A program made the translations under genes and the position numbers. Positions 19,985 through 23,781 of a stretch of DNA of 64,000 nucleotides are shown here, in pieces. A model generated the notes under the pieces. It saw only the letters and a program-made list of their open reading frames with translations, did not search any database and was not told where the DNA came from. The stretch's first letter is position 1. Every line of letters starts with the position of its first letter. Origin of the DNA: an uncultured Clostridia bacterium (GTDB taxonomy: Bacteria; Bacillota; Clostridia; Christensenellales; UBA3700); assembly GCA_945992255.1 (NCBI GenBank), contig CAMFVQ010000027.1, positions 24,026 through 88,025 on the forward strand, in the 5' to 3' direction.

Positions 19985-20001
19985 TCGTTCTAGACATTTT
20001 G

Positions 20002-20031
20002 TATCACCGAGCAATCGGTGATATTTTTTTT
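20002..20031 (+). terminator. intrinsic terminator after yajC
   Basis: TATCACCGA-gcaa-TCGGTGATA followed by T8. Confidence 0.9.
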
Positions 20032-20088
20032 GCAAAATACCGCTCATATACTACAAAAAGATTGCATAGTATTGGGTGGAGGTGCAAA

Positions 20089-20472
20089 ATGAAAAAAATT
20101 CAAGCAAAAGATTGGGTAGATATATTGCTTTCATCGCTTTATGCTGTGCTTATTGCTATCATTGCGGTGATGATATTTGCCGCCATTCTCAATTGGGTAA
20201 ATGTGGGCGATAACATTATCAGAGGGGTGAATATAGCAATCAAGATAATCGCAATTGCCGTAGGGTGTGTGTTAGGTATAAAACGCAATCAAGGCGGAAT
20301 TGTCAAAGGTGTGTGCGTCGGAGTGATTTTTGGCATACTGTCTTGGTTGATATTTTCGCTTATTGTTGGTGATTGGGCATGGGGTATAAGTGAGCTTGTG
20401 GACTTAGTTTGCAGTGTTGGAGCAGGTGCAATCAGTGGAATTGTGGTGGTAAATGTGAAGAAAAGTAAATAA
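20089..20472 (+). CDS. small polytopic membrane protein (YrzE/TIGR04086-like)
   Basis: 127 aa with 3-4 Gly-rich TM helices. GGAGG RBS before the ATG at 20089. The ORF-track start at 19999 would include the yajC terminator. Confidence 0.7.
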   Translation: MKKIQAKDWVDILLSSLYAVLIAIIAVMIFAAILNWVNVGDNIIRGVNIAIKIIAIAVGCVLGIKRNQGGIVKGVCVGVIFGILSWLIFSLIVGDWAWGISELVDLVCSVGAGAISGIVVVNVKKSK

Positions 20473-20487
20473 GTCCGAAAAAAAGAC

Positions 20488-20516
20488 TTGCAAATATCAC
20501 GAAAATAATATAGAAT
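20488..20516 (+). promoter_or_regulatory. sigma-A-type promoter for scfA-scfB
   Basis: TTGCAA, 17 nt, TAGAAT. Confidence 0.55.
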
Positions 20517-20552
20517 ATATATAAATAAAATACACATTGTATTGGAGGACTT

Positions 20553-20726
20553 ATGAAACACATCAATTCTATCGTAGAAAATGGTATGAAAAAATCTGGA
20601 AATATCGGCTGTGGCGAATGTCAATCTAGCTGCCAATCAGCTTGCAAAACTTCTTGCACCGTGGGCAACCAATCTTGCAGAAATAGAGACGAAAAAATAA
20701 ACACACCAAAGAAACCTTTGCTATAA
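20553..20726 (+). CDS. scfA: SCIFF-type six-cysteine ranthipeptide precursor (57 aa), absent from the ORF track
   Basis: Hand translation: MKHINSIVENGMKKSGNIGCGECQSSCQSACKTSCTVGNQSCRNRDEKINTPKKPLL. GGAGG lies 4 nt upstream. Six Cys occur in the SCIFF spacing. The radical SAM/SPASM gene follows 10 nt downstream. Confidence 0.9.
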   Translation: MKHINSIVENGMKKSGNIGCGECQSSCQSACKTSCTVGNQSCRNRDEKINTPKKPLL

Positions 20727-20736
20727 TTAGGTCAAA

Positions 20737-22098
20737 ATGACACATTCTTTTAGTTTTAAGTATCACGAAAGAGTGTATTATTTTGTTTGGGACAAAGAAA
20801 GTGGCAGTCTACACAATGTAGATTATGTCGCTTTTTTAGTTGTCAAAAATCGTTTTGGCGAGCAAATGAGCGATCAAGAAAAAGCTGACTTTGCCCAACT
20901 GGATAAGACACTTGTAGATGAAATAAATGCCGAACTAGATGTTTTGGTAGCTGATGGCGTACTTGATAGTCCATGCAATATCACTCTCAAACACAAGAGT
21001 GTTGGCGAAATCAAGGCGTTGTGTTTGAATATTTGTTATGATTGCAACCTTAGATGCAGATATTGTTTTGCTGATGAAGGCACATATCATACTTCCAACA
21101 GAGAGTATATGTCACTCGAAGTTGGTTGCAAAGCCGTTGATTTTTTGATTGAGCATTCTGGCAAACGCCAACATCTGGAAATTGACTTTTTCGGTGGCGA
21201 GCCACTTATGAACCTTGATGTTGTCAAGGGCATTGTTGAGTATGCTAGAGGCAGAGAAAAAGATAGTGGAAAGATTTTTTCTTTCACTATGACTACCAAC
21301 TGTATTTTGCTTAGTGATGACACGATTAATTGGCTAAACAAAGAAATGAGCAATGTTGTGCTCAGTATTGACGGCAGAGAGTGCGTACACAACGAAGTGC
21401 GTAAAACTCCTAACGGAAAAGGTTGTTGGGATATTATTATCCGCAATGCTCAAAAGTTCCGCAAGGTGCGTGGCGATGGTCAATACTATGTTCGTGGCAC
21501 ATTTACTGCCAAGAATTTGGACTTTTCAGAGGATATTTTAGCTTTGAACGATGCCGGTTTTGACCAAATCTCAATCGAGCCTGTTGTGACTGATATTCCT
21601 GACCTTGCAATCAAACAAGAGCATTTGCCAAAGGTTTTGGCTGAGTACGAAAAGCTTGCCGAAGAATATATCGACAGACGCAAAACAGGCAAATGGTTCA
21701 ATTTCTTCCATTTTATGATTGATCTAGAAGGTGGACCTTGTGTAATCAAGAGATTAACAGGTTGCGGTTCGGGTTGTGAGTACCTTGCGGTATCTCCAAA
21801 GGGCGAGATTTTCCCTTGTCACCAATTCGCTGAAGTCGATGGTTACAAAATGGGCAATGTGTTCGACGGCGACATTGATATGGATATATCTCACAAGTTC
21901 GCTGAGAATATTGTTACCAACAAGCCTGATTGCCAAAATTGTATTGCCAAATACTATTGCAGCGGTGGCTGTGTAGCCAACAATCTCAACTTTGCAGGCA
22001 ATATGCAAACACCTTACAGCATCAGTTGCGAGATGATGAGAAAGAGATTCGAGCTATCACTTGCGATTGCAAGCATTGAGGGCGCAGAACAAGAATAA
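20737..22098 (+). CDS. scfB: radical SAM/SPASM peptide maturase (ScfB-like thioether synthase)
   Basis: 453 aa. CX3CX2C motif (CNLRCRYC). C-terminal SPASM Cys clusters (CGSGCEYLAVSPKGEIFPC; CQNCIAKYYCSGGC). Confidence 0.9.
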   Translation: MTHSFSFKYHERVYYFVWDKESGSLHNVDYVAFLVVKNRFGEQMSDQEKADFAQLDKTLVDEINAELDVLVADGVLDSPCNITLKHKSVGEIKALCLNICYDCNLRCRYCFADEGTYHTSNREYMSLEVGCKAVDFLIEHSGKRQHLEIDFFGGEPLMNLDVVKGIVEYARGREKDSGKIFSFTMTTNCILLSDDTINWLNKEMSNVVLSIDGRECVHNEVRKTPNGKGCWDIIIRNAQKFRKVRGDGQYYVRGTFTAKNLDFSEDILALNDAGFDQISIEPVVTDIPDLAIKQEHLPKVLAEYEKLAEEYIDRRKTGKWFNFFHFMIDLEGGPCVIKRLTGCGSGCEYLAVSPKGEIFPCHQFAEVDGYKMGNVFDGDIDMDISHKFAENIVTNKPDCQNCIAKYYCSGGCVANNLNFAGNMQTPYSISCEMMRKRFELSLAIASIEGAEQE

Positions 22099-22102
22099 TT
22101 GA

Positions 22103-22122
22103 GAGCCGAAAGGCTCTTTTTT
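22103..22122 (+). terminator. intrinsic terminator after scfB
   Basis: GAGCC-gaaa-GGCTC followed by T6. Confidence 0.7.
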
Positions 22123-22281
22123 ATTGTGACAATCGAGTTTTGATTTGCAAAATAAATTAAAATAATCGGCAAGTAATTTTGCGGATTTTTAGTTTTTTTG
22201 AAATTTATTTGTGACTTTGGAGCAAAATTGAAAAATAGGGCAAATTATTTGACTACTTTGCTCACAATTTTCAAAAAAATA

Positions 22282-22310
22282 TTGACAATATTATTATATA
22301 AATATATAAT
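22282..22310 (+). promoter_or_regulatory. sigma-A promoter for secDF
   Basis: Perfect TTGACA, 17 nt, TATAAT. Confidence 0.7.
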
Positions 22311-22380
22311 AGTAAAGACTAGATTATTATGTCCTTATGGACAGATTATAGAGTTGACAAAATTTAGGAGGCAACACAAG

Positions 22381-23781
22381 GTGAACAAGAAAAAATCAAT
22401 AGTGATTTTGTCTATATTTACTATTTTGGTAATTCTTGGCGGAGTATTTTCTTTTGTATCACTTGACAATGGCGAATTGGGTGTTCATGACTACATTGCG
22501 TTCCCTAAGACAATCAAGTTTGGTCTTGATCTTAGTGGTGGTGCGTATGCAGTTTATATGGTTGACCCAGATGCTGTCATTGACCAAACTGCAGAAGGTG
22601 TAGACCGCACATGGAAAGACTTGAGTGCAAATGAAAAAGAACGTTTGCTAGAAGGTACACGTTCTAGTTTGGAAAATCTTTTGTTCGACAAGGGATATTC
22701 TGAGGCGCAAGTTACAACATACGATGATCGTATAAGAGTAGAGGTTCCTGATATCGATGATCCAAAACGTATCTTTGACCTTATTGGTCGTCCAGCAAGC
22801 TTAGAATTCAAGAAATATACTGGCGAATACAAACAAGGCGCAGGCGTTTCGTTCGATGATCCAATCACTGGTAATGATATTGCAGAAACTGGCGTTACAA
22901 AGAACAGCCAAACAGGTAGCTATGAAGTTGCATTGAGATTTACCGCAAAGGGTGCAAAGAAATTTGCTAGTGCGACAGAAGAAGCTTCAAAGTCTAGTGC
23001 AAAGCGTATCGGTATCTATATCAACAAAGAAGAGGTTATTGCTCCAACAGTATCTAGTACTATCTCTGGTGGTAATGCTTCTATCTCAGGCAACTATACT
23101 TATGATCAAGCTTATGCGCTCGCTGTCAAAATTCAAGCAGGTTCTTTCCCACTTACTTTGACACTTGATGAGTCCAACACAATCACCGCAACTTTGGGTG
23201 AAAATGCTATCAAAGCAGGTGTAATCGGTGGTCTTATTGGTCTTGCTCTTATCATAATTTATATGTGCATCTTCTATCGTATGATGGGTGTTGCTGCAAG
23301 TATGTCTTTGATTTACTATGCTTTGACTTATGTATTCTTCCTCGCAATCTTGCCTTGGGTACAACTTACCTTGGCAGGTATCGCAGGTGTATTGCTCTCA
23401 ATAGGTATGGCTGTCGATGCCAACGTAATTATTTTCGAGAGAATTAAGGAAGAGCATGCAAGCGGTAAGATGATGAAGACAGCAGTTGCCAACGGATTTA
23501 AGAGATCTTATGGTGCAATCATCGACGGAAACGTTACAACTATCATCGGTGCAATTGTACTTATTATTGTAGGTGCATCTTCAATCAAGGGTTTTGGTAT
23601 CACACTTTTGGTAGGTATCTTGCTATCATTGTTGTCATCATTGTTCCTTACAAGATTGTTGCTCAGCTCAATTATGGTATTCTTCAAAGAAGAACAACAT
23701 TCGGCTTTTGCACTCAAGGGTGCTGTAGCTGTGGCTGAAGGCTCTGACAATGTTGAAATAGAAGTAAAGGAGGAAAATTAA
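22381..23781 (+). CDS. secD: protein translocase subunit SecD
   Basis: GTG start 8 nt after AGGAGG. The ORF-track start at 22198 would read through the promoter. The C-terminal six-TM domain is typical of SecD. Confidence 0.92.
   Translation: MNKKKSIVILSIFTILVILGGVFSFVSLDNGELGVHDYIAFPKTIKFGLDLSGGAYAVYMVDPDAVIDQTAEGVDRTWKDLSANEKERLLEGTRSSLENLLFDKGYSEAQVTTYDDRIRVEVPDIDDPKRIFDLIGRPASLEFKKYTGEYKQGAGVSFDDPITGNDIAETGVTKNSQTGSYEVALRFTAKGAKKFASATEEASKSSAKRIGIYINKEEVIAPTVSSTISGGNASISGNYTYDQAYALAVKIQAGSFPLTLTLDESNTITATLGENAIKAGVIGGLIGLALIIIYMCIFYRMMGVAASMSLIYYALTYVFFLAILPWVQLTLAGIAGVLLSIGMAVDANVIIFERIKEEHASGKMMKTAVANGFKRSYGAIIDGNVTTIIGAIVLIIVGASSIKGFGITLLVGILLSLLSSLFLTRLLLSSIMVFFKEEQHSAFALKGAVAVAEGSDNVEIEVKEEN

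Follow-up and report, generated by a model that had tools for sequence, protein, structure and literature searches.

Does the long, basic C-terminal tail of a small six-cysteine peptide set that peptide apart from its relatives, or has it been inherited together with the rest of the gene? This question is raised by scfA, a 57-codon gene, and by scfB, the gene for a radical S-adenosylmethionine (SAM) enzyme that follows it, in a 64-kb stretch of DNA (contig CAMFVQ010000027.1, positions 24,026 to 88,025; hereafter the window) from an uncultured gut Clostridia bacterium. An earlier note on this DNA, made from its letters and a list of open reading frames (ORFs), had read the two genes as a SCIFF precursor and its maturase, and had singled out the 15 residues that follow the sixth cysteine of the precursor. 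The chemistry and physiology of SCIFF peptides form the background to the question (PMC8326336, PMC8172795, PMC10177961, PMC8102284); in the passages of PMC8326336 and PMC8102284 that summarise Chen et al. 2020, the sole functional data cited for SCIFFs connect them with quorum sensing and sporulation in two species of Clostridium. We are highly confident that the interval 20553-22098, taken as a whole, is best explained as a canonical scfA-scfB two-gene unit for a SCIFF ranthipeptide, in which the tail is a lineage-inherited extension.

Identity of the scfA-scfB unit

Both curated models place the scfA product in the SCIFF family, as the earlier note had proposed: with NCBIfam TIGR03973, the SCIFF equivalog model, the peptide reached 65.9 bits (cut-off 50), and with Pfam PF13165 it reached 67.2 bits (gathering score 27). 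Its six cysteines (C20, C23, C27, C31, C35 and C42) follow the pattern C-x2-C-x3-C-x3-C-x3-C-x6-C with a CQSACKTSCTV core, in agreement with the core of 119 SCIFFs sampled at species level. Of the two models, TIGR03973 aligns to residues 2-43 and PF13165 to residues 2-44, which leaves the tail almost wholly outside both. Within the core, Cys31, Thr33 and Thr36 are the counterparts of CteA Cys32, Thr34 and Thr37 (CteA numbering as in PMC8326336), and CteA Cys32 with Thr34 or Thr37 are the residues reported as thioether partners (PMC8326336, PMC8172795). A candidate thioether donor, Cys31, and two candidate acceptors, Thr33 and Thr36, are present in scfA.

The ORF and its translation were reproduced exactly on reading the window. 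Its absence from the first ORF list is due to the 60-residue floor of that list, and public gene callers do call it. Indeed, the exact 57-residue peptide has been gene-called, with a SCIFF Pfam match, on two public metagenome contigs (Logan SRR23826140, ENA ERZ27286917), and P0002, a homologue 89% identical to the scfA peptide, carries the NCBI name 'six-cysteine ranthipeptide SCIFF [Clostridia bacterium]'. The novelty implied for the peptide does not hold, since both the exact sequence and close relatives stand in public data under the SCIFF label.

The possibility that the small ORF at 20553-20726 is a chance reading frame, or that the true gene is the 115-residue ORF on the opposite strand (20289-20636), is one to which we give practically no weight. 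All that can be said for the antisense ORF is that it exists: it has no Pfam match and overlaps two real genes, at the 3' end of the DUF3792 gene and at the 5' end of scfA. We rejected it as a gene, and the earlier description of it as misleading was apt. A chance origin of the small ORF is opposed by SCIFF model E-values of about 1e-18, by 2720 homologues and by a ratio of nonsynonymous to synonymous differences (pN/pS) of 0.07 in the core. Homology and selection, as read from the sequences, already refute both versions of this explanation.

The 453-residue scfB product is encoded on the same strand (20737-22098), 10 nucleotides past the TAA stop of scfA, where it had been placed. It scored 564.8 bits on TIGR03974 (SCIFF maturase, equivalog; cut-off 425), covering residues 8-445, and 482 bits on the 'not_ScfB' exception model NF040492, below the cut-off of 855 for that model. 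Compared with solved structures, scfB is a close homologue of CteB (5WGG/5WHY), with an E-value of 1.2e-136 and 459 bits over residues 16-445, nearly its full length. These results uphold its designation as an ScfB-type enzyme.

Ligands of the iron-sulphur clusters were assigned by carrying over the CteB ligand list of PMC10177961 through a HMMER alignment and by aligning 105 ScfBs taken from SCIFF loci. The CX3CX2C motif of the radical SAM cluster comprises C103, C107 and C110, aligned to CteB C104, C108 and C111; the ligands of auxiliary cluster I (C343, C361 and C412) and of auxiliary cluster II (C399, C402, C408 and C431) also align to those of CteB. Thus the motif and the two SPASM cysteine clusters noticed earlier are all present by the CteB alignment. 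All ten ligand columns are invariant among the 105 ScfBs, and the SPASM model TIGR04085 gave scfB 57.4 bits against a cut-off of 27. The N-terminal region, expected in this family to be of the RRE type and to bind the leader, appears to have its homologous stretch in scfB, given that the CteB alignment begins at residue 16 and that of TIGR03974 at residue 8.

Taken together, the sequence comparisons show that both proteins belong to their respective families, that all catalytic cluster ligands are kept and that the acceptor and donor residues of the core are kept; no evidence against the SCIFF/ScfB identity of scfA-scfB was found. The locus is a textbook SCIFF/ScfB pair, already recognised by standard annotation and part of a system that is already known. 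Few peptide-modification loci of Clostridia are as widespread or as well catalogued as such pairs, and the discovery value of this one is small.

Distribution of the tail among SCIFF precursors

The length of the tail was considered in three samples. For one, a single genome of each GTDB species was scanned with a degenerate DNA pattern encoding the invariant core CQSACKTSCTV, which gave at least 120 arbitrary loci, 119 of them measurable; the result is a convenience sample and not a census. Among the matches listed, tails of 2-5 residues after Cys6 were found at 98 of the 119 loci (82%), tails of 6-9 residues at nine and tails of 12-15 residues at ten, with one locus each having 21 and 24 residues. 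Tails of 12 residues or more therefore total 12 loci (10%), and those of 15 or more total five (4%), which bears out the suggestion that 15 residues is longer than typical. The genomes of the long-tailed loci in this sample are labelled mostly Christensenella sp., Candidatus Borkfalkia, Candidatus Coproplasma and uncultured Clostridia; Borkfalkia falls within Christensenellales in the NCBI taxonomy.

A second sample came from a protein search with the full peptide, which returned 2720 matches. Tail length could be read in 118 of the best 120 clusters at 90% identity; in 117 of them it is 12-18 residues, nearly always 13-16 and most often 15. This sample is biased toward long tails because the query included the tail, but it still shows that such a tail is the rule among close relatives. 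Labels of the close long-tailed relatives are Clostridia bacterium, Christensenellales, Christensenellaceae, Candidatus Faecicola and 'Acidaminococcus sp. CAG:917'. In the third, an exhaustive search of 50%-identity representatives with residues 1-43 only gave 1144 matches. The best 150 of these 1144 representatives hold a coherent class with tails of 12-18 residues, as well as apparent 'tails' of 19-63 residues that show no conservation and seem to be artefacts of read-through or assembly. We did not use this sample for frequencies, as its best 150 are still skewed to the clade of the query and include artefactual representatives.

The maturases follow the same division: the 13 ScfBs nearest to scfB, and then those of loci L060 and L054, are all paired with long-tailed precursors. 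On this distribution the tail is a trait of a whole lineage and not a peculiarity of the present copy, and the lineage concerned is made up of gut and rumen Clostridia that are Christensenellales-like or otherwise unclassified. The novelty that had been implied for the tail is not sustained, the tail being common to well over 100 90%-identity clusters of one lineage. Within the searchable literature on ranthipeptides in Christensenellales, no discussion of a lineage-wide SCIFF tail was found.

Constraint on the tail and its possible roles

The scfA tail is hydrophilic, contains proline and, with a net charge of +3, is basic, as the earlier note had it. Among 130 distinct tails of 12-18 residues, [KR]-[IVP]-N starts at position +5 or +6 past Cys6 in 84; position +5 is mostly Glu, position +12 mostly Lys, and the mean net charge is +1.7. 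The motif E-[KR]-[IV]-N carried by the scfA tail is still found in lineages that have only 52-69% identity in ScfB. At loci L123-L127 the peptide is 89% identical to that of scfA, against 69% for ScfB, 56% for SecD and 42% for RecJ.

Substitutions were counted codon by codon with the Nei-Gojobori method in nine different coding sequences from the nearest subclade. The resulting pN/pS is lowest in the core (0.07), followed by the leader (0.15) and then the tail (0.35); with pS at about 0.8 the synonymous differences are saturated, and the true ratios are therefore lower still. The tail is thus under purifying selection, though less strongly so than leader and core.

The junction between the two genes bears on how the tail arose. 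In the subclade of scfA the scfA stop codon lies about 10 nucleotides from scfB, against a short-tail median of about 82, and Cys6 lies about 58 nucleotides from scfB, against about 95; the tail-coding sequence thus fills a stretch that is non-coding spacer in other lineages. Such occupancy is compatible with ancient loss of a stop codon and is no proof of it. The tail might, on a stronger version of this idea, be a functionless and tolerated read-through into the scfA-scfB spacer after the ancestral stop codon was lost. A distance from Cys6 to scfB no longer than the short-tail median, a gap reduced to some 10 nucleotides as expected of captured spacer, the sporadic occurrence in databases of unconserved tails resembling read-through, and the position of the tail as the least constrained part of scfA all speak in its favour. 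However, a pN/pS of 0.35 in spite of saturated synonymous sites argues that the tail does not evolve neutrally. Furthermore, its length is held at 13-16 residues while the E-[KR]-[IV]-N motif survives considerable divergence of ScfB, and a second type of long tail (ERITRE...) retains a spacer of 60-212 nucleotides, so that long tails are not simply captured spacer. We consider a functionless tail quite improbable. RNA structure, such as an attenuator, was sought in the tail-coding region and at the scfA-scfB junction, and none was significant (z -0.14).

The tail could also be a second recognition element for ScfB, acting as a follower peptide or as a mimic of the leader N-terminus, perhaps as the remnant of a fused second SCIFF. 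Tandem double-SCIFF ORFs do occur (P0121, P0136), and in these the second leader (SRIKTL) starts 4-5 residues past Cys6, where the scfA tail has EKINTP. The tails were scanned with a profile built from residues 2-8 of short-tail SCIFF leaders, and its best match over 129 pooled distinct long tails was slightly above that of shuffles (z about 3, 1 in 1000 shuffles). Yet the absolute scores are negative (mean -4.1 bits), and the scfA tail itself scores -6.5 bits, with 44% of its shuffles at least as good; the pooled z-score is moreover inflated, because the long tails are related to one another. Long-tail and short-tail loci also show a systematic difference at residues 24-25 of ScfB, which lie in its N-terminal domain. 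The long-tail clade, however, has leaders unlike those of other SCIFFs, and this accounts for the difference in the enzyme without recourse to the tail. Leader mimicry, or descent from a fused second SCIFF, was rejected for the scfA tail, which does no better than its shuffles, the pooled excess being small and inflated by kinship. A second recognition element for ScfB itself is, in our view, very improbable.

We return, then, to a canonical unit with an inherited extension. By analogy with CteB/CteA and Tte1186, the MKHI-type leader would be bound by the N-terminal domain of ScfB, and the radical SAM cluster would cleave SAM to give a 5'-deoxyadenosyl radical. This radical would take a hydrogen atom from the side chain of a core threonine, Thr33 or Thr36, after which the thioether between Cys31 and that threonine would form, with auxiliary cluster I engaging a substrate cysteine. 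Because nothing has changed in the leader, the core or the enzyme ligands, our best guess is that catalysis by ScfB can do without the tail. The role of the tail would then come after cross-linking: it may be a follower segment that is later trimmed off, or the part by which a downstream partner recognises the mature peptide.

One may go further and suppose that the tail, x3-[DEG]-E-[KR]-[IV]-N ... KKPL[LI], defines a functionally distinct SCIFF subfamily of Christensenellales-like gut Clostridia, in which the extension itself is what a downstream protease, exporter or receptor recognises, a supposition that we regard as unlikely. Were it true, the tail would offer a sequence handle on the fate of SCIFF peptides after cross-linking. 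A more modest use is that of a natural variant, whose additional conserved segment of 13-16 residues may provide a comparative handle on the role, processing and mature form of SCIFFs.

Several points weigh against the interpretation given here. The constraint on the tail is weaker than that on leader or core, and only the nearest subclade has the KKPL[LI] end, a PL[LIF] end being found in 32 of the 130 distinct tails. The position of the thioether in CteA is itself disputed, being Thr37 in vitro and Thr34 in E. coli (PMC8326336, PMC8172795). The literature found describes neither a native mature product of a SCIFF nor a cleavage site or a receptor. Finally, the assignment of a promoter to scfA draws on a weak consensus match and three conserved bases.

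Expression signals and gene neighbourhood

The features of the unit and its flanks are collected in Table 1. The Shine-Dalgarno sequence that had been noticed ahead of the small ORF was found, and scfA lies, as had been stated, after the yajC terminator and the gene for a small membrane protein.

Table 1. Features of the scfA-scfB unit and its flanks (positions in the window)
Feature	Position	Strand	Basis or remarks
Intrinsic terminator after yajC, upstream boundary	20001..20024	+	10-bp stem, 4 GC pairs, then TTTTTTTT
Small membrane protein gene (TIGR04086/DUF3792), 127 aa	20089..20472	+	TIGR04086 40.3 bits (cut-off 30); PF12670 42.3 bits (cut-off 31.3), 127-aa form
Probable scfA promoter, TTGCAA-17-TAGAAT	20488..20516	+	9/12 consensus match and conservation
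Shine-Dalgarno sequence GGAGG	20544..20548	+	4 nt before scfA ATG; nearly invariant in relatives
scfA	20553..20726	+	57-codon ORF, translation MKHINSIVENGMKKSGNIGCGECQSSCQSACKTSCTVGNQSCRNRDEKINTPKKPLL, TAA stop
scfA leader, residues 1-19 (MKHINSIVENGMKKSGNIG)	20553..20609	+	MKHI N-terminus common to SCIFFs in general; pN/pS 0.15
scfA core, residues 20-42 (CGECQSSCQSACKTSCTVGNQSC)	20610..20678	+	family models align residues 2-43 and 2-44; pN/pS 0.07
scfA C-terminal tail, residues 43-57 (RNRDEKINTPKKPLL), with TAA stop	20679..20726	+	lineage-specific extension
scfB, radical SAM/SPASM thioether-forming SCIFF maturase, 453 aa	20737..22098	+	TIGR03974, CteB alignment, ligand columns
Intrinsic terminator ending the scfA-scfB unit	22101..22125 (consensus scan 22101-22118)	+	GAGAGCC-GAAA-GGCTCTT, then T run

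The promoter read from the sequence by the earlier note is present at the position given for it, although its match to consensus is only 9 of 12 bases and weak when taken alone: a consensus scan of 3.1 kb of this AT-rich DNA returned 22 sites of the same grade, against about 10 expected by chance. Better support comes from an alignment of 10 diverged relatives: column identity in the spacer averages only 47%, yet the TTG of the -35 element never varies, and an AT-rich block resembling a -10 element lies at similar spacing. We regard TTGCAA-17-TAGAAT as the probable scfA promoter. A search of both strands of the window for Rfam families at gathering scores returned none, whether tRNA, rRNA or riboswitch, and none near queA or tgt.

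Pfam scans of the window and the gene tables of relatives give the order aldehyde dehydrogenase, ruvC, ruvA, ruvB, queA, tgt, yajC, DUF3792, scfA, scfB, secD, secF, recJ and relA/spoT. In agreement with the earlier note, no protease or exporter gene is adjacent to the unit and secDF comes next. That no dedicated protease or exporter is encoded alongside is normal for the family, because the same housekeeping neighbours recur across loci: ScfB is encoded directly downstream on the same strand at 114 of 127 SCIFF loci, with secD nearby at 44, tgt at 33 and recJ at 31. A recent pangenome study reports that ranthipeptide clusters are conserved across clostridial orders, with at most one per species. 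Nearly all of the 13 loci that lack an ScfB match have too little downstream DNA. The exceptions are L058, from a Peptococcaceae metagenome-assembled genome (MAG) with 6.7 kb downstream, and L014, from a Desulfotomaculaceae MAG with 1.9 kb; both have a SCIFF core and no ScfB match at E<1e-5, and their precursors may be orphan or rearranged.

The DUF3792 gene is a variable neighbour of scfA, with a 127-residue call at loci L121 and L122 and with the gene absent or replaced at L123-L127 and L130-L132. The TIGR04086 family has been linked to SCIFF loci. The start of the listed ORF (19999-20472), at TTG-19999, is over-extended, because the yajC terminator lies there; the ATG at 20089 gives the 127-residue form.

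The mechanically called secD ORF (22198-23781, 527 residues) is also over-extended at its 5' end, SecD of relatives having 459-479 residues and in one case 547. A perfect sigma-70 consensus, TTGACA-17-TATAAT with all 12 of 12 bases, lies inside this ORF at 22282-22310, and the true secD start is probably a GTG near 22381. As the consensus precedes this likely start, secDF appears to have a strong promoter of its own, separate from that of scfAB.

Other SCIFF loci and a variable residue of ScfB

The second long-tail type was met at six loci (L011, L034, L037, L044, L048 and L069) whose genomes are labelled Candidatus Borkfalkia, Candidatus Coproplasma, Christensenella sp., uncultured Clostridiales and uncultured Clostridia. 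Its tail, ERITRE..PEK.., has 12-14 residues and belongs to a precursor with a shortened leader of 15-17 residues (MIKTIARPAEKKVTG, MIKTIARP...), the spacer before scfB being 60-212 nucleotides long.

P0121 (108 residues) and P0136 (92 residues) are single ORFs that each hold two complete SCIFF units, leader and core, in tandem; in P0136, Ser replaces two Cys in each core (CQSASKTSSGVANQPC). These could be fused or duplicated SCIFF precursors.

Four loci come from MAGs labelled Alistipes, Bacteroidota, Bacteroidales and Bacteroides (L008, L038, L050 and L065). The peptides of L008, L050 and L065 are of the ordinary Ruminococcus/Lachnospiraceae type, that of L008 being almost identical to the peptide of L067 from Ruminococcus flavefaciens, and these three look like binning contamination and not like SCIFFs outside Bacillota. 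L038 has an atypical upstream region without a clear start codon and is harder to judge.

In scfB, residue 347 (codon 21775-21777) is Cys, within CGSGCEYL, where CteB has His, within CGSGHEYL. It is an extra cysteine four residues past a ligand of auxiliary cluster I, a cluster that in CteB has an open coordination site, and could alter the ligation of that cluster. Cys occupies this column at 15 of 21 long-tail and 6 of 84 short-tail loci, or 7 of 12 and 5 of 56 after de-replication. The column is, however, generally variable (T/N/H/C/Y), and the second long-tail type has Asn; on these grounds we take Cys347 to be probably a lineage marker and not a feature strictly linked to the tail.

Comparison with known systems

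The biochemically characterised SCIFF ranthipeptide systems are CteA/CteB of Clostridium thermocellum (thermocellin) and Tte1186a/Tte1186 of Caldanaerobacter subterraneus. Like CteA and Tte1186a, scfA has a six-cysteine core with Cys4-K-T-S-Cys5-T, an MKH-type leader and a two-gene arrangement; like CteB, scfB has the same overall architecture (459 bits, residues 16-445), with all radical SAM and SPASM ligands. At 57 residues scfA is longer than the 45-48 or so of CteA and Tte1186a, because 15 residues instead of 2-5 follow Cys6, and its leader ends in ...GNIG and not in ...KKGG. On the side of the enzyme, Cys347 takes the place of the CteB histidine, and the gap between the two genes is 10 nucleotides against about 80 at typical SCIFF loci.

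PapA/PapB (freyrasin) and QhpD offer a more distant comparison, PapB and QhpD being homologous radical SAM/SPASM enzymes of the same thioether chemistry class. On the PapB model scfB scored 265 bits (cut-off 340) and on the QhpD-type model 233 bits (cut-off 453), far below both cut-offs, and we rejected its membership of either family. The scfA substrate, for its part, is without CX3D repeats.

The closest counterparts are found in the long-tailed, Christensenellales-like subgroup represented by P0002 and by loci L054 and L060 ('Christensenella sp.'), which share with scfA the leader type, the core, the tail of 13-16 residues with its E-[KR]-[IV]-N motif, and the gene neighbourhood. The scfA peptide is a member of this subgroup, from whose other members it differs by point substitutions only.

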